Position numbers and translations under genes: made by a program. From the IMG/VR virus record IMGVR_UViG_2737471860_000002, positions 1 through 26,886 of that record: a stretch of DNA of 26,886 bases. The stretch is one strand, 5' to 3'. Each line of letters starts with the position of its first letter. The stretch's first letter is position 1. Origin of the DNA: a virus (taxonomy: Duplodnaviria > Heunggongvirae > Uroviricota > Caudoviricetes). Positions 19,153-24,642 of this stretch are shown here, piece after piece. The notes beneath the pieces are model-generated. The model was not told where the DNA came from and did no database searches. It saw only the letters and a list, made by a program, of their open reading frames with translations.

Positions 19153-19730
19153 ACACTAATCCCCAGTATTTCACGTTTGATGGTGTCAGCCGCACCGCCT
19201 GACAGACCGCCTGTTCTGACCAGCTCTTCGGTTTTCTCTGCCATCTCCTGCGCAAACGCATCGCGGATCGCTTTCTCGCGTTTATGGCTGGTCATGGCTG
19301 CCGCTTCCAGACGCTGGGCAACCAGCGCCAGTTGCCCCAGCGCCTTCGGTGCAACGGGCTTGTCGTCTTCTGCCATCGACATGGACGTTTCAAAGGCCAG
19401 CGTTTTTACAAACTCCATCAGCAGCTTGCCGACGTCTGACGTCGGCGCGGAACCCAGCTTTGCCGCCCAGACTTCGGCCATTTCGCGGGAGGCGCGGATT
19501 TTGGCCCCGACTTTTTCCATGCGGATGGCATAGCGGTTTAAGCCCGTCCGGCTTAACTGCATCTCTTCCGGCAGGTTATGTTCGTCAATCAGGGCGTTGA
19601 TGGCTTCGCGGATTTCTTCCTGTGTGTGCCGCTTTTCCCGCAGCATCTGATGCAACTGCTCCCGGATGCTGTCCGGGAGTAAATCCACTTTGGAAAGACG
19701 GCCACGGGTGGGGCGTTGTTCATTTTCCAT
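19149..19730 (-). CDS. Terminase small subunit (Mu gpD-like)
   Basis: ORF track gives a start at 19751; I prefer the ATG at 19730 (MENEQRPTRG...), preceded by AGGAGG 7 nt upstream. Helix-rich basic protein ahead of the large terminase. Confidence 0.65.
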   Translation of the reverse strand: MENEQRPTRGRLSKVDLLPDSIREQLHQMLREKRHTQEEIREAINALIDEHNLPEEMQLSRTGLNRYAIRMEKVGAKIRASREMAEVWAAKLGSAPTSDVGKLLMEFVKTLAFETSMSMAEDDKPVAPKALGQLALVAQRLEAAAMTSHKREKAIRDAFAQEMAEKTEELVRTGGLSGGAADTIKREILGISV

Positions 19731-19867
19731 GTGTGCCCTCCTGTTGCTCACTACGCTGTGAACTTTCGTATGCAGATTTCAGCGCGCCACTCTGGATTTC
19801 ACGCCATGTCAGGTTGTGCGCCAGACGGCGGAGTTCATCACGGGACGCTTTACTTATCGGATTCTTT

Positions 19868-20167
19868 TTACGGTTCACGACGGCCCCCGTCTTCAGTTCC
19901 CGGTGTTTTCAGACCGGCGTATATTTCTTCGCGAACGGACCGGATATCCTTACCCAGCAGCTTCCACAGCCGCGCACATGCCGGTGATGAACGCAGGGCA
20001 CATTTCATGGGGGTATCCGGTGCATCCGGGTTCCATGGCTTTCCTGTATGTTGTTCGTATGCACGGACAATGGCGTTTTGCTCGATATCTGCCATGACAA
20101 GGCAGTACGCCAGCTGCCGCACGACGGCCCGTTCTCCGCGACTTAACGGCTTCAGTTTTCGGGTCAT
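19868..20167 (-). CDS. Hypothetical protein (99 aa)
   Basis: ORF tightly packed after the 97-aa gene (3-nt spacing); no family recognised. Confidence 0.5.
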   Translation of the reverse strand: MTRKLKPLSRGERAVVRQLAYCLVMADIEQNAIVRAYEQHTGKPWNPDAPDTPMKCALRSSPACARLWKLLGKDIRSVREEIYAGLKTPGTEDGGRREP

Positions 20168-20169
20168 GC

Positions 20170-20463
20170 TCAGTCTCTCGCACGGGGTTTTTTAACGCCC
20201 GGCACACCGGACAGGCCATTTGCCACATCCTCGCCGCTGCCGGTGATTTCAGCCACGTAACAGCCGCCCACATCAGACAGACGAACCAGCCCCTGCTCGC
20301 GCAACCATGCAAGCTGGGTGCGTACCACATCACGGGATACCTTATGACCGTAAGCCTGAAGGCAGGTCTGCAACACGGATTCATTCGCGCTGTCGCCACA
20401 GTCCAGCAGGGAACGCAGCAACACAAGACGACGGTCTTCAGTGAGGATCTCTTTCATCGCCAT
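20170..20463 (-). CDS. Hypothetical protein, possible winged-helix DNA-binding fold (97 aa)
   Basis: TAATG-type overlap with the upstream gene; RRLVLLRSLL...VSRDVVRTQLAWLREQGLV looks wHTH-like. Inference only. Confidence 0.5.
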   Translation of the reverse strand: MAMKEILTEDRRLVLLRSLLDCGDSANESVLQTCLQAYGHKVSRDVVRTQLAWLREQGLVRLSDVGGCYVAEITGSGEDVANGLSGVPGVKKPRARD

Positions 20464-20768
20464 TAATTTTTTTCCTTTAACTCGTTCTCTAATAACAAAT
20501 CACTGATGCGGGATACCTGGCGGATGGATGGCCCCAGCTCTTTGATTTCTCCCCGCAGGTTGCTGATATCCAGTTGCAGACGGTGGAACTCATCACGATC
20601 AGGTAGCTGATGTACCTGGCTTTCCATCACCGACACGCGGGAACGCAACAAATCAAACTCTTCGCGTTTGACGTACGTCTTCGCCAGAATCAACTGAAGC
20701 AGGTTTATTGCTGTCATTAACAGCGCCCACAGAATGGGCCAGTTGGCTCTGATCATTTCCCAGGACAC
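20463..20768 (-). CDS. Small membrane protein with N-terminal TM helix and coiled coil (i-spanin-like or Mu-specific membrane protein)
   Basis: 101 aa; hydrophobic WPILWALLMTAINLLQLILA followed by a heptad-like charged region. Confidence 0.5.
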   Translation of the reverse strand: MSWEMIRANWPILWALLMTAINLLQLILAKTYVKREEFDLLRSRVSVMESQVHQLPDRDEFHRLQLDISNLRGEIKELGPSIRQVSRISDLLLENELKEKN

Positions 20769-20980
20769 GTCTTCCTCCTGCGTTCCCGCATCTGCTGACA
20801 GTCAATACAGGTCACCACATCCGGCAGCGCCGCAAGGCGCTGTACCGGAATAACGTTCCCGCAGTCATTGCAGAAGCCCCGACTGTGGGGCGCTTCTTTT
20901 GTCCGTATCTGCCAGGCTTTAACGACGCTCTGACGCTCGTTCAGAACCACTTCACTGATGCGGTCGATTTCGTCGGTCAT
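20753..20980 (-). CDS. TraR/DksA-family C4 zinc-finger protein
   Basis: 75 aa with CNDCG...(17 aa)...CIDCQ, the CxxC-x17-CxxC spacing characteristic of this family. Confidence 0.7.
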   Translation of the reverse strand: MTDEIDRISEVVLNERQSVVKAWQIRTKEAPHSRGFCNDCGNVIPVQRLAALPDVVTCIDCQQMRERRRKTCPGK

Positions 20981-21585
20981 TTCGGCCCCGCAGATATTTT
21001 GTGACGACTTGATTTGCTGTAACGGGCAAAGCCGTCAAGGGTTCGCACGCCGAGATAGCCCAGCGCAGGGGTAAGCAACATCAGCGTGATATCCCAGTCC
21101 GGTGATGGCATATGCAGCGTGATACCTCTGGCACCGGCAATGGCTCCGGCAATCTGGCCGCAGGAAAGCAACAGCACATAGGCAAGACTGCTGTAACAGG
21201 ACAGGCGGGCCAGCAACGGGCGCGTCTGGCGCACATAGCTGTCCGTGGCGTTGTCACCATTGCGGATGGTTTCCTGCTGTTCGTGGTGTGCGGCCTGCTG
21301 ATCAGCCAGCACCAGCTTCTGCCGTTCCACCTCCAGTTGTTGCAACTGAATTTTCAGGGTTTCCAGCTGCATCAGTTGCTCCGGTGACAGCATCACCAGC
21401 TTTTGTTCCAGAATGCGTTGCTGTTCAGCCACCGGCAGGCTTTCCCGGACGCTTTCCACCATACCGGCCACCGAGTCAGCGGCGGCAGATGTACTGCCAC
21501 CAAACCAGCGCCCGACGGAACGAATCAGCCCCGGCCCGGCTTTCAGCAGAACAGAGGCGATGCCTGAAAGGGTTAACGGATCCAT
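20977..21585 (-). CDS. Hypothetical lysis-region protein with central coiled coil and two C-terminal hydrophobic segments
   Basis: 202-aa ORF; 4-nt overlap with the downstream TraR-like gene; composition read from translation. Confidence 0.5.
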   Translation of the reverse strand: MDPLTLSGIASVLLKAGPGLIRSVGRWFGGSTSAAADSVAGMVESVRESLPVAEQQRILEQKLVMLSPEQLMQLETLKIQLQQLEVERQKLVLADQQAAHHEQQETIRNGDNATDSYVRQTRPLLARLSCYSSLAYVLLLSCGQIAGAIAGARGITLHMPSPDWDITLMLLTPALGYLGVRTLDGFARYSKSSRHKISAGPK

Positions 21586-21983
21586 GAATCCCCCTTATGA
21601 AAACGGCGCTGATGTTTATAAAGTGCCGCGCAAAAAATACCGCCCAGCCAGAACGCCAGCTGATAAGGCTCCTTCAGATAAAGAATGCCGAATGTCAGCA
21701 TGAAAAAACCAACGGCCCAGACCACCCATGACCACACGACAATTCGAAGGGAAGCGGCCCGGAAACGCCTTTTGGGTTGCAGGCGATAAGGTACGTTGCC
21801 CAGCTGGAAACTGTGAATCAGACAGAGTGTCGCGCCGTATGCCAGCACCATGACCGCAAACGCCCGCCATCCGGCAAAACAGCTCGCCAGAAAAAGTACT
21901 GTCGACAGCCCCAGAAACGACCACTGGCACAACATAAAGCGGGAGTAAATAACGCGAACAAAAAGACTATTCATTCTGTGCAT
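21573..21983 (-). CDS. Polytopic membrane protein (about 4 TM segments), holin-like candidate
   Basis: ORF track gives a longer 193-aa version; I favour the start at 21983 (MHRMNSLFV...), with AAGGA about 9 nt upstream, because the N-terminal extension overlaps the 75-aa ORF and looks non-protein-like. Confidence 0.5.
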   Translation of the reverse strand: MHRMNSLFVRVIYSRFMLCQWSFLGLSTVLFLASCFAGWRAFAVMVLAYGATLCLIHSFQLGNVPYRLQPKRRFRAASLRIVVWSWVVWAVGFFMLTFGILYLKEPYQLAFWLGGIFCAALYKHQRRFHKGDSWIR

Positions 21984-22194
21984 TGAGTTTTTCCTTGTAC
22001 TTCTGGCACTGCCAGAAAATGTCCCGTGTATCCACGGAGTTCCAGCCACGCATGTAGTAGCTGGCGTGTGTGCCGTCATGGCCGGTATAGTCCAGCGGTT
22101 TCGGGGGCGGACCTCCGGCCATGCGGTGCAGAACCTCCTGACGCAGGCGGTCACGCCGCCCGGCTTTCAGTGAGGCATCCCAGCCTTTACCCAT
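21967..22194 (-). CDS. Small basic hypothetical protein (75 aa) immediately after the endolysin
   Basis: 8-nt overlap with the endolysin stop, consistent with translational coupling. Confidence 0.45.
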   Translation of the reverse strand: MGKGWDASLKAGRRDRLRQEVLHRMAGGPPPKPLDYTGHDGTHASYYMRGWNSVDTRDIFWQCQKYKEKLNAQNE

Positions 22195-22792
22195 ATCCCC
22201 CCCGCGTGGCGGACATGATGCCTGGAGGGGTATTGATGATTTCCAGACAGGCGTCGGTCAGCTTTTCCATGCGGTTAAACCATCCGTTCAGGTATTTGCC
22301 CTGGGCGGGTTTTGATTTGATGATGTCGGCATAAAAGCGGGAACGACGGACAATGCAGCGGGTCAGCAACCAGTCCGGGGTGGACAGGCTCACGGCCTTA
22401 CGGGTACGCGGGCCGATGATGCCGTCAGCATCCACATCAGCGGCTTCCTGCAAAATCCTGATGGCTTTTTTAACGCCATGCTGAACCGCCGCATCGAACA
22501 CAAACATCGCCACGCCATCAGGCCACTGGTCACATCCGGCAGGCAGCCAGTAATCGCGCCAGTAAATCTGCGCAACCTGTTCGCGGGTCAAATCCCTGAT
22601 GCGGGTATCCGGTTTGCCGTCGCCGTTGACATCAGTTTTGCCATCAATCACACCGTCGCGGCGGTCAGAAATGCCGTATTTGGTTTCACCGCCACGGTCA
22701 GTGGGGTCATTGACATAGACGCCTTCGATATCGGGACGCAGAATAAAATTCAGCGCATGCTCAAAGGCTGGGGAGAATTTTTGATTTTCCAT
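22187..22792 (-). CDS. Endolysin, GH108-type lysozyme with C-terminal peptidoglycan-binding domain
   Basis: 201 aa; N-terminal ...DIEGVYVNDPTDRGGETKYGISD... matches the GH108 signature (EGGY, NDP.D.GG.T..GI) as I recall it; first gene after the Mor-like gene. Confidence 0.75.
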   Translation of the reverse strand: MENQKFSPAFEHALNFILRPDIEGVYVNDPTDRGGETKYGISDRRDGVIDGKTDVNGDGKPDTRIRDLTREQVAQIYWRDYWLPAGCDQWPDGVAMFVFDAAVQHGVKKAIRILQEAADVDADGIIGPRTRKAVSLSTPDWLLTRCIVRRSRFYADIIKSKPAQGKYLNGWFNRMEKLTDACLEIINTPPGIMSATRGGYG

Positions 22793-22804
22793 AAAAGCAC
22801 CTGT

Positions 22805-22831
22805 GAAGCAGATTTAAACGTGGTCTGCTTC
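22805..22831 (-). promoter_or_regulatory. Hairpin (8-bp stem GAAGCAGA/TCTGCTTC, 11-nt loop) immediately upstream of the endolysin ribosome-binding site
   Basis: Inverted repeat read directly at 22805-22812 and 22824-22831. Confidence 0.4.
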
Positions 22832-22847
22832 ATGGTGCCGGAGGCAT

Positions 22848-22871
22848 AAAAAAAGCCGGATTTACCGGCTT
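22848..22871 (-). terminator. Intrinsic-terminator-like hairpin plus U7 tract directly downstream of the Mor-like gene; copy B of the duplicated 38-bp element
   Basis: Stem 22853-22859 pairs with 22865-22871; plus-strand A7 at 22848-22854. The wider element GGAGGCA-N-AAAAAAAGCCGGATTTACCGGCTTCA-N-TGA spans 22840-22877. Confidence 0.55.
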
Positions 22872-22877
22872 CATTGA

Positions 22878-23327
22878 TTAAGGGCGTCGTGGCGGACGAC
22901 GAACGGGGTGAGGCAGGTTCGGGGAGTGGTAGAACAAATCCGGCTGGTATTTATTACGCTCCAGACGCCGCATCCGTTTGATGGCCTTGTAGACGGTTTT
23001 ATACGTCACTCCGTAACGCTGAACCAGTTCAGGAATATTATGGCCGTTAAAATCACGCCAGATACGCATATCCCGGACAAGATTCTCCAGAATATTCCCC
23101 CTCGGAACATAAACCTGCATCCCGCCAATATGGCGACAAATCGCCACAACCAGCTCAAGGGAATGAGCAGGGTCTGCGCCAATCCGGGCCAGCTCTTTAC
23201 GCAGCAGTGCGTTCAGTTCAGAAAGTAACGCCGGATAAGCGGTGTTTTCCTGGTAATCGTTAAGATATTCCAGAACGCTGTCGTCCCGAAGGTCTTCGAA
23301 TAAATCCTGCTCTTTCATCTGTTTCAT
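22878..23327 (-). CDS. mor: Mor/C-family transcriptional activator
   Basis: 149 aa; strong resemblance by memory to Mu Mor (DLF.DL.DD..L..L, ALLAELN.LLR.EL.R.G.DPAHSLE.VVAIC.H.GG.QVY.PRG, RD.RIW.DFNG.N..EL...YGVT..TVYKAI.RMRR); lies directly after gemA as in Mu. Confidence 0.7.
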   Translation of the reverse strand: MKQMKEQDLFEDLRDDSVLEYLNDYQENTAYPALLSELNALLRKELARIGADPAHSLELVVAICRHIGGMQVYVPRGNILENLVRDMRIWRDFNGHNIPELVQRYGVTYKTVYKAIKRMRRLERNKYQPDLFYHSPNLPHPVRRPPRRP

Positions 23328-23875
23328 ACAGCAATTCTCCCGCTGTTTCGTGCGCGGGCATATGCACTGGTCAGTGCATCATAGCCGCGCAGCTCCCGCC
23401 CGGATGGGCTTACAGGTAAAGGCACACCATGTCGGGCAAAGGCTTCCCGGATGCAGCGCATATGCCACTGTTTGAGCGTTTCGAGCACAACCTGCAACGA
23501 TTTCCCGTGACACCAGGCCAGAGTGGAAACACCCTGGCCGCCATTACGTCTGGCCGTCAGGCGTTCAACGTATTTGTCCAGCGCGGCGTCGCTGCTATCA
23601 GCGACAAAGCCATCCTGAAACATCTGCTGCCAGATTTTATAAATCTTCTCGCGCGGTGTGACATACCCCTTAAAGCGACGGCGGGGATGTTTTTTCTGCT
23701 TTTTAAAACCGCGCTCTTTCATGGCATCGAGCACACGTTCCAGTTGTGCGACGGTCAGCTCGCGGCAACTGGTCTTGCCTGTGCACTGCACCAGAAAGGC
23801 GCGGTAAGTGTCATCGTCGAGTTGTAGATCACGACGGGCGACATGAATTAATTTAATCAGGGATGTGCGATTCAT
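23324..23875 (-). CDS. gemA: GemA-like protein (Mu gp16 family)
   Basis: ORF track gives a start at 23911; I prefer the ATG at 23875 (MNRTSLIKLIHVARRDLQLDDDTYRAF...), preceded by GGAGG. Position upstream of mor as in Mu. Confidence 0.65.
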   Translation of the reverse strand: MNRTSLIKLIHVARRDLQLDDDTYRAFLVQCTGKTSCRELTVAQLERVLDAMKERGFKKQKKHPRRRFKGYVTPREKIYKIWQQMFQDGFVADSSDAALDKYVERLTARRNGGQGVSTLAWCHGKSLQVVLETLKQWHMRCIREAFARHGVPLPVSPSGRELRGYDALTSAYARARNSGRIAV

Positions 23876-23895
23876 TATCGTACCTCCGAAAAAGA

Positions 23896-23915
23896 GGCGG
23901 TGCGGCAACACCGCC
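23896..23915 (-). promoter_or_regulatory. Hairpin (7-bp stem GGCGGTG/CACCGCC, 6-nt loop) followed on the minus strand by UCUUUUU, immediately upstream of the gemA RBS
   Basis: Inverted repeat read directly; terminator-like on the minus strand, and it also lies in the 5' leader of the plus-strand ORF. Confidence 0.4.
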
Positions 23916-23947: not shown

Positions 23948-24214
23948 ATGAAAAACAGTGAACAGCCTTATGATGTTGCAGGGTATGTCATTGCCTCAAG
24001 GTTGCTGATACTCCTTGTCAGAAAGGGGCTGATTACCGCAGAGGAAGGCAAAACGATCCTCGAAGCCGCAGCAAGCGGAGCGGCAGAGGCTCCGGCATTG
24101 AGAACAACGAATAATCCCATTCTGCAAATATCACAGCTAATCACTGATACCATCAGTTTGTTAGACCAAGATTCTGATGAATATCAAAAGCCTCAGCCAT
24201 CTGAGCATCCGTAA
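23948..24214 (+). CDS. Hypothetical opposite-strand small protein (88 aa)
   Basis: ORF track gives 23900..24214; I place the start at the ATG at 23948, with AGAGGA 8-9 nt upstream. Mixed charged/hydrophobic composition. It is the only plus-strand candidate in the window, and its 3' end is convergent with and overlaps the next minus-strand gene by about 60 nt. Confidence 0.4.
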   Translation: MKNSEQPYDVAGYVIASRLLILLVRKGLITAEEGKTILEAAASGAAEAPALRTTNNPILQISQLITDTISLLDQDSDEYQKPQPSEHP

Positions 24215-24467
24215 GAATATCTTTATTTGATAGTCCCAGCCTGCGACGAATGTATTCCTCGCGGGCTGCTTCATTTTGTAGCGCCACGGCAGCTTCCACC
24301 TGGTTCATTTCACGGTTAATAATGCTCCGGACTTCTCTGGCGGTGAGGTCATGCTCAATACCATATTTAACGATATCGTGCATACGTTCCAGCATCTTTA
24401 AATTAGCCATGACGCCATCAATATCAACTGGTGTGAATTTCATTTCTTTATTCTCTGGTTTATTCAT
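24153..24467 (-). CDS. Hypothetical early-region protein (104 aa)
   Basis: Start placed at 24467 (MNKPENKEMKF...), preceded by AAGAGG 9 nt upstream; 8-nt overlap with the upstream gene. Confidence 0.55.
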   Translation of the reverse strand: MNKPENKEMKFTPVDIDGVMANLKMLERMHDIVKYGIEHDLTAREVRSIINREMNQVEAAVALQNEAAREEYIRRRLGLSNKDILTDAQMAEAFDIHQNLGLTN

Positions 24468-24642
24468 TTCGTAATACCTCTTCGCAATAAAAGATTTCAC
24501 TGGGATAACGTTTTTGTATGCGCTCCATCACCTGCATACACACCTGCTCTGTGGGCCAGATTTTTTCTGTTACCGGAATGGCATCACAGGCATCATTTCC
24601 ACAGGTGCCAACCAGCAGGACAAAGCCAATTAACTTAATCAT
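24460..24642 (-). CDS. Small Cys-containing protein with N-terminal signal/TM segment (possible lipoprotein, non-canonical lipobox)
   Basis: Start at 24642 (MIKLIGFVLLVGTCGNDAC...) with AGGAA upstream and an ATGATTAA-type overlap with the upstream stop. The longer track ORF would overlap the upstream gene by about 100 nt. Confidence 0.5.
   Translation of the reverse strand: MIKLIGFVLLVGTCGNDACDAIPVTEKIWPTEQVCMQVMERIQKRYPSEIFYCEEVLRNE

Follow-up and report, generated by a model that had tools for sequence, protein, structure and literature searches.

A probable TeaA/GTA-type holin beside a GH108 endolysin in the spanin-free lysis cassette of a Mu-like Escherichia coli prophage

Introduction

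The canonical lysis of Gram-negative hosts needs a spanin. Phage Mu carries an Rz/Rz1-type spanin (gp23/23.1) together with a PF00959 SAR endolysin (gp22), the releasin gp25 and a second activator, C, and has no holin. Releasin, the DUF2730 protein of Mu, targets SAR endolysins that are tethered to the membrane and carry a basic tail in the cytoplasm; it is the essential release factor in this phage, and in every transposable phage a DUF2730 gene is conserved at a distance of at most five genes from the endolysin gene (PMC9239132). Seven of the nine endolysin families paired with DUF2730 have no SAR domain, and the function of DUF2730 in those cases was left open in the same study, in which the GH108/DUF2730 pairing in Mu-like phages was already catalogued (Table S1 of Chamblee et al. 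2022, PMC9239132). A soluble endolysin, for its part, requires a hole-forming holin (PMC9239132).

Experimental support for PF11351 (formerly DUF3154) proteins as holins comes from two systems. TeaA of phage ICP1 causes the PMF to collapse, with DNP acting as a trigger, and a TM-containing antiholin, ArrA, is encoded alongside it (PMC7182436), while in RcGTA the PF11351-family holin rcc00556 acts with the muramidase endolysin rcc00555, both being required for release (PMC5026251, PMC3423380). Here we compare with these systems the lysis region of a Mu-like prophage of E. coli, in which DUF2730 is likewise paired with an endolysin without a SAR domain.

Results

The window analysed was positions 1 to 26,886 of the IMG/VR record IMGVR_UViG_2737471860_000002, in which a sequence-only reading had placed a lysis cassette at 20463-22792. 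This placement was borne out: the block holds a muramidase gene and five further late genes, one of which encodes a probable holin. In a Mu-like prophage of E. coli it makes up the promoter-proximal end of the first late operon. The cassette-bearing prophage was present in 51 of 5426 complete E. coli genomes, where the cassette ORFs were all intact and 93-97% conserved. GemA and Mor are encoded upstream, and Mor is followed by the GH108+PG_binding_3 muramidase and then by five tightly overlapping ORFs (orf75, orf136, orf202, TraR/DksA and DUF2730) down to position 20463, where only four small proteins had been counted before. All five matched phage protein families (E = 1e-20 to 1e-59) and carry CDS annotation in RefSeq E. 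coli genomes, and they are thus genes rather than chance ORFs. According to the ORF coordinates, genes overlap by 1-17 nt across the cassette, which argues for co-translation in one operon, downstream of a terminator-like GC-rich hairpin with a T-run (22852-22872, minus strand; 8-bp stem with 5 GC pairs, T7 tail). This hairpin lies directly after the mor stop codon, within the 85-bp gap before the endolysin gene, and a late promoter dependent on a Mor-type activator is presumed between it and position 22793; a search for a sigma-70 promoter consensus upstream of the endolysin found none. Megablast of the block against the phage collection gave no match, and neither did PADLOC defence profiles for orf136, orf75, orf202, DUF2730, orf99 or the early-region lipoprotein.

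On the coding strand of the whole window there were three proteins with TM segments, all in the cassette, apart from a hydrophobic stretch in a structural protein of 491 aa and a pair of short, unannotated ORFs sitting inside or overlapping other genes (mor and the 24153-24500 ORF). The three are orf136 (3-4 TM), orf202 (a weak N-terminal helix and two C-terminal TM) and DUF2730 (one TM), in agreement with the number given by the sequence-only reading. That reading had regarded the membrane proteins as unclassified, which does not hold for all of them, since DUF2730 belongs to the Mu gp25 releasin family and the family of orf202 overlaps PF11351.

The endolysin (201 aa; 22187-22792, minus strand) matched PF05838 Glyco_hydro_108 with 84 bits (cut-off 21.2) over aa 22-106, the N-acetylmuramidase domain, and, C-terminal to it, PF09374 PG_binding_3 with 63.3 bits (cut-off 24.6) over aa 110-175, so that its earlier description as a GH108 enzyme with a peptidoglycan-binding domain, unlike the lysozyme of Mu, was confirmed. 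It also matched PHROG 315 ‘endolysin’ (2e-54), whereas its full-length match to NCBIfam NF040573 ‘holin-associated N-acetylmuramidase’ was sub-threshold (74 bits against the equivalog cut-off of 240). The catalytic Glu of GH108 enzymes is part of an EGGY-type motif near the N-terminus, as described in the literature on N4 gp61. The protein reads IEGVY at aa 22-26, its Vibrio homolog EGG and its Klebsiella homolog EGSY; the Glu is present and is putatively the catalytic one. A hydrophobicity scan of the endolysin, whose N-terminus is MENQKFSPAFEHALNF, detected no 19-residue window with a Kyte-Doolittle mean of at least 1.6, and the protein is thus predicted from its sequence to be a soluble cytoplasmic enzyme without signal peptide, TMD or SAR domain.

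Three of the genes that follow could be related to Mu by homology or position. The product of orf75 (21967-22194, minus strand), a small basic cytoplasmic protein without TM, shares 69.6% identity with Mu gp18 over 69 aa (E=1e-37) and belongs to family PF26867 according to precomputed assignments of its relatives; three helices were predicted (AF2 pLDDT 84), and a fold search of the model against the PDB returned nothing significant, the best matches (E of at least 0.26) being RNA polymerase omega chains. A gp18-holin fusion, prompted by the 284-position profile phrog_2121 that spans both proteins, was rejected, as the homologs found were only 64-87 aa long and none was fused. The C4 zinc-finger protein TraR/DksA (20753-20980, minus strand; no TM) matched PF01258 with 42.3 bits (cut-off 24.9) and TIGR02419 with 60.4 bits (cut-off 59.7); in every GH108-type locus its gene is flanked by the holin slot and DUF2730, in the position of Mu gp24, and the protein is probably an RNA-polymerase-binding regulator, not a lysis effector. 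DUF2730 (20463-20768, minus strand), the fifth gene after the endolysin and hence within the distance typical of its family, matched PF10805 with 106.2 bits (cut-off 24.9), aa 4-98 aligning with profile positions 1-102 of 102. A TMD at its N-terminus (aa 8-30) precedes a coiled coil in the cytoplasm, and its identity is 27% with Mu gp25 and 39% with the DUF2730 protein of Vibrio phage 1.028.O; the endolysin with which it is paired has no SAR domain, unlike the partner of releasin.

Directly upstream of orf202, orf136 (21573-21983, minus strand; PHROG 12596) encodes a very basic inner-membrane protein with 3-4 TMDs according to hydropathy. The slot is hypervariable: the protein is 33% identical to its Klebsiella phage counterpart, against 65-79% for its neighbours, and over 43 loci the median pairwise identity was 30%, compared with 74-78% for the neighbours. 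Vibrio and Shewanella versions have no orf136, and some enterobacterial versions likewise have orf202 only. A 176-aa entry, P0264, is a frameshift product of gp18 and orf136. The protein resembles Mu gp19 (phrog_4975) in position, size, multi-TMD character and a short C-x-G-W-R-A motif, but the hhalign probability was 11% and the PHROGs differ (12596 vs 4975). We see it as a candidate antiholin or lysis modulator, or else a candidate exclusion factor.

The following gene, orf202 (20977-21585, minus strand), encodes a 202-aa membrane protein, probably a holin of the TeaA/GTA (PF11351-like) type on the evidence of profiles and of its predicted structure. At the N-terminus lies a weakly hydrophobic helix that bears an FGG motif; a long stretch of helical, coiled-coil character comes next, then two TMDs in the C-terminal part (about aa 123-152 and 164-184), and last a basic tail. 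Its match to PF11351 GTA_holin_3TM (aa 64-162 vs profile positions 14-106 of 123) reached 20.5 bits (E=7e-4), under the gathering threshold of 24.8 bits, and among 81 aligned relatives 34 matched the profile at E<=0.01, the best at 8.4e-9. The AF2 model was of high quality (pLDDT 91.4), and in a Foldseek search of BFVD its top match was ‘Holin of 3TMs, for gene-transfer release’ (E=1.5e-7, 32% identity), matches named ‘Holin of 3TMs’ occupying ranks 1 and 4 (E=1.5e-7 and 0.1). Pseudoalteromonas phage HS6 has in the same slot (endolysin-gp18-...-X-TraR-DUF2730) a 148-aa annotated holin that matches PF11351 above the cut-off (43.5 bits), and orf202 shares its layout with this protein and with one from ICP1. 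In hhalign comparisons of the orf202 family with single PF11351 members, probabilities were 29% for the HS6 protein and 82%, over about 50 residues, for the 182-aa ICP1 protein; the family profile had no match among PDB sequences. For orf202 to fit the ‘3 TM’ description of PF11351, its weak N-terminal helix, in which Lys15 lies, would have to cross the membrane. Positive-inside analysis would place the coiled coil and the basic tail in the cytoplasm, leaving about 11 periplasmic residues.

No holin or o-spanin had been recognised by eye in the sequence-only reading; as to the holin, profile searches have now supplied a candidate, while the absence of an o-spanin held. Scanning for lipoboxes, in the cassette as well as over the whole window, revealed no separate lipoprotein (o-spanin) ORF in the cassette, alternative-frame ORFs had no PHROG matches, orf202 matched no spanin profile, and no ORF combined the lipoprotein signal and C-terminal TMD of a unimolecular spanin (T1 gp11 type). 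A 59-aa Pro-rich ORF embedded in orf202 (21081-21260) was rejected as an o-spanin: its lipobox is poor, it had no PHROG match, comparison with strain STEC383 shows 5 altered amino acids in it and 1 in the main frame, and it is missing from the Klebsiella, Vibrio and Shewanella versions. In-frame internal starts with a lipobox in orf202 (‘LLLSC’) or orf136 (‘FLASC’) were likewise discarded, being TMD segments whose Cys is not conserved in Klebsiella. Matches to known holin and spanin families, which if clear and complete would have refuted the earlier reading, go only halfway: a holin is probable and a spanin absent, and orf136 and the role of DUF2730 fall outside such an explanation.

Related IMG/VR loci were gathered with the gp26-like alignment, and 68 complete loci were compared. 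The slot between gp18 and TraR was occupied by an orf202-type gene in 54 of them, mostly with an orf136-type partner, and by a small 2-TMD membrane protein with an embedded Rz/Rz1 spanin pair in 9; the two contents never co-occurred. As they are mutually exclusive, the gp18-TraR slot appears to be a membrane-disruption slot. The sister cassettes (L072, L074, L075, L077-L079, L085, L086 and L088) have the same flanks as the present one, namely (GH108)-gp18-like upstream and TraR-DUF2730-gp26-like downstream, and carry phrog_1322 (2 TMD, 76-91 aa), i-spanin phrog_1403 and the embedded lipoprotein o-spanin phrog_5369/4719 where orf136 and orf202 are found here. The lipobox scan yielded zero o-spanins in the 54 orf202-type loci, and positives in 10 of 14 sister loci. 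As far as such scans can tell, a spanin is absent from the cassette and from the 54 related loci, and the want of an outer-membrane-breaking gene is the one real oddity of an otherwise ordinary Mu-like late lysis module.

Discussion

The reading that we favour, and hold to be reasonably probable, is that the cassette constitutes a holin-endolysin system in which orf202 is the PF11351-family holin and the other genes are accessory. Its basis is the observed domain identities, the endolysin without export signal, the family and fold links between orf202 and PF11351, synteny, and the absence of a spanin. The GH108/PG_binding_3 muramidase would be made as a soluble, folded cytoplasmic enzyme, while orf202, a divergent member of the TeaA/RcGTA-holin family, would build up in the inner membrane by way of its two C-terminal TMDs, the helical N-terminal domain facing the cytoplasm. 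By analogy with ArrA, the neighbour of TeaA in ICP1, the product of orf136, presumably translationally coupled to orf202, is the foremost candidate for a timing modulator or antiholin. The gp18 homolog and DUF2730, cytoplasmic or cytoplasmically oriented helical proteins conserved in every Mu-like lysis region, are probably modulators of the membrane step, and TraR would act on transcription. Since no dedicated outer-membrane disruptor is encoded, rupture of the outer membrane would be passive or due to an unrecognised factor.

Against this reading count the PF11351 score of orf202 below the gathering threshold, the moderate hhalign probabilities and the lack of the spanin that canonical Gram-negative lysis requires. 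DUF2730 replaces a holin in Mu, and its conservation in this cassette leaves room for a different logic, in which orf202 is not a holin and DUF2730, alone or with gp18 and orf136, moves the endolysin across the membrane. Such Mu-style lysis would draw on the constant proximity of DUF2730 to the endolysin, on its essential role in the holin-less phage Mu (PMC9239132), and on the fact that gp18 and a multi-TMD protein adjoin in Mu too. We consider it improbable, because releasin acts on endolysins tethered to the membrane and the enzyme found here has no TMD of any kind, because Mu gp25 and gp19/gp20 are neither lethal nor DNP-triggered (PMC9239132), and because family and fold evidence independently connects orf202 with holins that have experimental support. 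An exchange of roles, with orf136 as the holin and orf202 as a new envelope-spanning or outer-membrane-disrupting protein in place of Rz/Rz1, would suit the alternation with the small 2-TMD protein plus Rz/Rz1, and the long coiled coil of orf202 resembles i-spanins, its alignment to Mu gp23 being weak and at chance level. The occurrence of orf202 without orf136 in Vibrio, Shewanella and some enterobacterial versions, the hypervariability of orf136, unusual for an essential timer, the predicted cytoplasmic position of the coiled coil and tail of orf202, with so few residues left for the periplasm, and its failure to match spanin profiles make this exchange unlikely as well.

Decay of a cryptic prophage, with the lysis function of the cassette already lost, is highly unlikely. 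In E. coli it is known only as prophage copies, and a related Shewanella element was judged inactive (PMC8541194), but the ORFs are intact and conserved throughout the 51 E. coli genomes, substitutions falling in the orf202 region leave the main frame conserved, and plaque-forming Vibrio phages have the same architecture (Table S1, PMC9239132). A wider proposal, which we regard as doubtful, is that a large Mu-like lineage of enterobacteria and marine gammaproteobacteria lyses its hosts by a TeaA/GTA-type holin and a soluble muramidase, free of spanins, with DUF2730, perhaps together with gp18, acting on the holin or membrane step instead of on a SAR endolysin. If this were true, the general function of DUF2730 would be to regulate or potentiate inner-membrane permeabilisation, the orf202-type module would somehow make the spanin dispensable, and the orf136 slot would hold a co-evolving antiholin or exclusion determinant.

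With orf202 taken as the probable holin, a 202-aa ‘hypothetical protein’ of hundreds of enterobacterial Mu-like prophages becomes nameable as a probable TeaA/GTA-type holin. The case flagged as unresolved by Chamblee et al., DUF2730 with an endolysin without SAR domain, has in this cassette a genetically tractable example in E. coli, and the natural alternation between orf202-type contents without spanin and a small membrane protein with Rz/Rz1 offers a clean comparative system on spanin dispensability.

The flanking genes are close to those of Mu (identities of 81% for GemA, 63% for Mor, 70% for gp18, 61% for gp26 and 47% for gp27), and the two phages have in common the position of DUF2730, the small zinc-finger gene upstream of it and a multi-TMD gene after gp18. 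The present locus departs from Mu in that its GH108 enzyme is soluble, a PF11351-like holin candidate is encoded, a spanin is lacking and the region contains only one gene of the Mor family. The likeness to RcGTA lies in the pairing of a muramidase, rcc00555, which we take to be GH108-type, with a PF11351-family holin; RcGTA differs in being a chromosomal domesticated locus of an alphaproteobacterial host. ICP1 (NC_015157), a large virulent phage, encodes a 182-aa protein built like orf202, from the FGG-bearing helix at the N-terminus through a helical middle and two TMDs near the C-terminus to a basic tail, although the sequence similarity is very remote. Between orf136 and the ICP1 neighbours no similarity was detectable, and homology to DUF2730 was not borne out for an ICP1 protein with TMD and coiled coil (ORF139; probability 3%).

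The nearest relatives are the Mu-like myophages of the Vibrio Nahant collection (e.g. 1.028.O._10N.286.45.B6), Vibrio phage martha 12B12, Shewanella MuM16-2 and Klebsiella phage Kp4866-3. In their records the orf202 homolog is labelled only as a hypothetical, coiled-coil or TM protein; PGAP occasionally mis-names orf202-type proteins TatA/TatE. Martha and ZX4290 carry a DUF5675 endolysin, not GH108, and the E. coli and Klebsiella versions have the additional hypervariable multi-TMD gene, orf136, in the gap between gp18-like and orf202. The Vibrio, Shewanella and Klebsiella phages and the E. coli prophage share the order Mor-(moron)-endolysin-gp18-like-orf202-like-TraR-DUF2730-gp26-like-TerS-TerL, with identities of 41% for the GH108+PG_binding_3 endolysin, 39% for orf202, 39% for DUF2730 and 60% for the gp26-like protein.

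Organization and distribution of the lysis cassette

All genes of the 26.9-kb window lie on the minus strand, and the window corresponds to the late half of a Mu-like prophage, with tail genes at the left and the GemA/Mor region at the right. In transcriptional order after GemA (23324-23911) and Mor (22878-23327), the cassette consisted of the endolysin (22187-22792), orf75 (a homolog of Mu gp18; 21967-22194), orf136 (a very basic protein with 3-4 TMDs; 21573-21983), orf202 (the probable holin; 20977-21585), TraR (20753-20980) and a DUF2730 protein (20463-20768), and was followed in order by a gp26-like gene, two small ORFs, DUF3486 (Mu gp27-like) and the large terminase. Consecutive cassette genes overlapped by 8, 17, 13, 4, 16 and 1 nt, as calculated from coordinates, which is the hallmark of a single operon with translational coupling. 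The sequence-only reading had counted four ORFs downstream of the endolysin, where five were found; the presence of TM segments in three of them was borne out. All five downstream ORFs matched phage protein families (E = 1e-20 to 1e-59), and RefSeq annotation of E. coli genomes gives the same ORFs. A 3.3-kb block around the cassette was detected in 51 of 5426 complete E. coli genomes (93-97% identity), almost always in the chromosome.

The endolysin matched GH108 and PG_binding_3, both far over Pfam cut-offs, and lacked any hydrophobic stretch, being therefore taken as a soluble cytoplasmic enzyme. It differs in this from Mu gp22, a PF00959 SAR lysozyme, in agreement with the initial description of a GH108 enzyme with a peptidoglycan-binding domain, unlike the endolysin of Mu. 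At residues 49-62 a DxDxDG-like loop (DGKTDVNGDGKPDT; weak Dockerin_1 match), which could bind calcium, is inserted in the GH108 domain; it was also present in the Klebsiella phage enzyme and missing from the Vibrio homolog.

The moron slot separating Mor from the endolysin (22793-22877) was empty, consisting of 85 bp with a terminator-like hairpin (22852-22872), while relatives carried there a 110-aa membrane protein or unrelated proteins of 150-166 aa that have signal peptides (L002 4293-4772, L003 4295-4792, L005 1639-2091 and L006 1878-2210). Between GemA and the endolysin a single Mor/C-family activator was seen (22878-23327; 63% identical to Mu Mor and 32% to Mu C), whereas Mu has both Mor and C, which suggests a shorter regulatory cascade in the window's lineage. 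Beyond the cassette, orf52 (19720-19878, minus strand) matched the N-terminal 41 positions of PHROG 8988, the same PHROG as the adjacent orf99 (19868-20167, minus strand), and looks like a truncated tandem paralog of it; in phage HS6 the orf99 homolog lies within the lysis cassette, between the gp18-like and holin genes.

Identification of a candidate holin

The orf202 product has an N-terminal helix of weak hydrophobicity and an extended helical middle part, then two C-terminal TMDs and a tail with five basic residues. Its match to PF11351 (GTA_holin_3TM) was just below the cut-off (20.5 against 24.8 bits). An exhaustive search yielded relatives in 134 clusters at 50% identity, and among the 81 full-length relatives aligned, 34 matched PF11351 at E<=0.01 (best 8.4e-9), with no other family recurring. 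The AF2 model built from this alignment (pLDDT 91.4) retrieved as first Foldseek match among viral models a "Holin of 3TMs, for gene-transfer release" (E=1.5e-7, 32% identity). The syntenic protein of Pseudoalteromonas phage HS6, annotated as a holin, scored over the PF11351 cut-off (43.5 bits), its single-sequence hhalign match to the orf202 family being weak (29%), and a 182-aa protein of the ICP1 TeaA locus shared the orf202 layout and aligned with the orf202 family profile over the N-terminal 50 residues (hhalign probability 82%). Experiments support PF11351 as a holin family: DNP triggers ICP1 TeaA, which collapses the PMF and has the neighbouring TM protein ArrA as antiholin (PMC7182436), and RcGTA release requires rcc00556 together with the endolysin rcc00555 (PMC5026251, PMC3423380). 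Based on these results, orf202 is a probable holin and was placed either within PF11351, as a divergent member, or next to it as a sister, and not among the threshold-passing members. In some E. coli genomes PGAP names its homolog "twin-arginine translocase TatA/TatE family subunit" (L002 2378-2986, NZ_CP035860.1), probably a mis-annotation, since no NCBIfam or Pfam Tat model matched the window protein.

Comparison of related cassettes

The order endolysin, gp18-like, orf202-like, TraR, DUF2730, gp26-like, TerS recurred in Vibrio phages 1.028.O, martha and ZX4290, Shewanella MuM16-2 and Klebsiella phage Kp4866-3, and was kept even where a DUF5675 endolysin replaces GH108. In IMG/VR, 80 Mu-like loci were fetched via the conserved gp26-like protein and their ORFs classed by BLAST against a reference set, resulting in 68 complete cassettes. 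The window's order was found in 42 of these, two with minor variations (gp18-like and orf136 swapped; a split or duplicated GH108 match), and in 12 more without a BLAST-recognisable orf136. Nine carried instead gp18-like, a 76-91-aa 2-TMD protein, an i-spanin with embedded o-spanin (confirmed by PHROG: phrog_1403, 5369 and 4719, "Rz-like spanin"), TraR and DUF2730, and five were of Mu type (SAR lysozyme, Rz, DUF2730). Orf202-type and spanin-containing contents never co-occurred among the 68; this mutual exclusion indicates that the gp18-like/TraR interval is the membrane-disruption slot, which supports a function in lysis for the window genes located there.

Close relatives of orf136 were restricted to E. 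coli (13 clusters), with a counterpart of 33% identity in the Klebsiella phage. Most of the 12 loci lacking a recognisable orf136 held in the slot a 125-136-aa multi-TMD ORF diverged past BLAST recognition. The slot is hypervariable (window 21573-21983; L024, L058, L060-L063, L065, L067-L069 and L071, between the gp18-like and holin genes): across 43 non-identical loci the median pairwise identity of its protein was 30% (10th percentile 10%), against 74-78% for GH108, gp18-like and holin, and conservation at the very C-terminus of this protein (WIR/WIQ) is due solely to overlap with the region of the holin start codon. With the adjacent holin conserved, such hypervariability would suit an exclusion or host-interaction factor as well as it would an antiholin.

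Orf75 was 70% identical to Mu gp18, and its relatives carried PF26867. Its AF2 model (three helices, pLDDT 84) had no significant structural neighbours in the PDB. Omega chains of E. coli RNA polymerase made up nearly all of the top non-significant matches (E>=0.26, TM<=0.37); with TraR as neighbour, this could hint at an RNAP-related role while constituting no evidence of one. TraR itself scored over cut-off for PF01258 and TIGR02419, and is best read as a transcription factor.

Search for a spanin

Lipobox scans covered the cassette, the whole window and five related phages. In the cassette they returned only in-frame stretches of the orf136 and orf202 TMDs plus one non-conserved embedded ORF, and the ten alternative-frame or small ORFs of the region that were compared gave no match to a spanin or any lysis family. 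The same scan recovered o-spanins in 10 of 14 sister loci and in 0 of 54 orf202-type loci. A spanin may lie elsewhere in the prophage, beyond the window. In the early region, a 60-aa ORF (24460-24642, minus strand) that contains five Cys and a good lipoprotein signal (MIKLIGFVLLVGTC) matched phrog_16556 (unknown function); no i-spanin-like partner lies next to it, and it had no match in PADLOC.

Proposed lysis mechanism

With moderate confidence, the cassette is interpreted as a spanin-less holin-endolysin system, in which orf202, as a TeaA/GTA-type holin, would release the soluble GH108 muramidase, orf136, the gp18-like protein and DUF2730 would be accessory or regulatory factors at the membrane step, and TraR would act as a transcription factor. 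The last cassette ORF is a full-length DUF2730 (Pfam, 106 bits), the family of Mu gp25, the "releasin" required to free the SAR endolysin of Mu, which lacks a holin (Chamblee et al., PMC9239132). The same study reports DUF2730 in many Mu-like phages whose endolysins have no SAR domain, lists Vibrio Mu-like myophages pairing it with GH108+PG_binding_3 (Table S1), and explicitly leaves its role beside such endolysins open.

Mu-style release driven by DUF2730 is less likely, as is a reading with orf136 as the holin and orf202 as a spanin substitute. As gp18-like, TraR and DUF2730 occur alongside spanins too, the genes specific to orf202-type cassettes are orf202 and, in enterics, orf136, so any cassette-encoded outer-membrane function would have to lie in these; positive-inside reasoning places the orf202 helical domain and tail in the cytoplasm with only ~11 periplasmic residues, which would argue against a spanin-like role. 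A decayed cassette is a less likely reading as well.

Comparison with known systems

Annotated public genomes already contain the cassette itself, and published tables list the GH108/DUF2730 pairing; added here are the holin assignment for orf202, the consistent lack of spanins in this lineage, in contrast to sister cassettes that hold them at the same position, and the hypervariable slot of the membrane protein orf136. The latter occupies the same post-gp18 position as Mu gp19, to which homology was not demonstrable, and resembles antiholins such as ArrA by position and architecture. In the ICP1 lysis locus (NC_015157; L091 8725-10097), the membrane proteins include the three architectures also seen in the window, namely a TMD+coiled-coil protein of 114 aa, a multi-TMD protein of 151 aa and the PF11351-like protein of 182 aa, of which only the last is detectably similar to window proteins.
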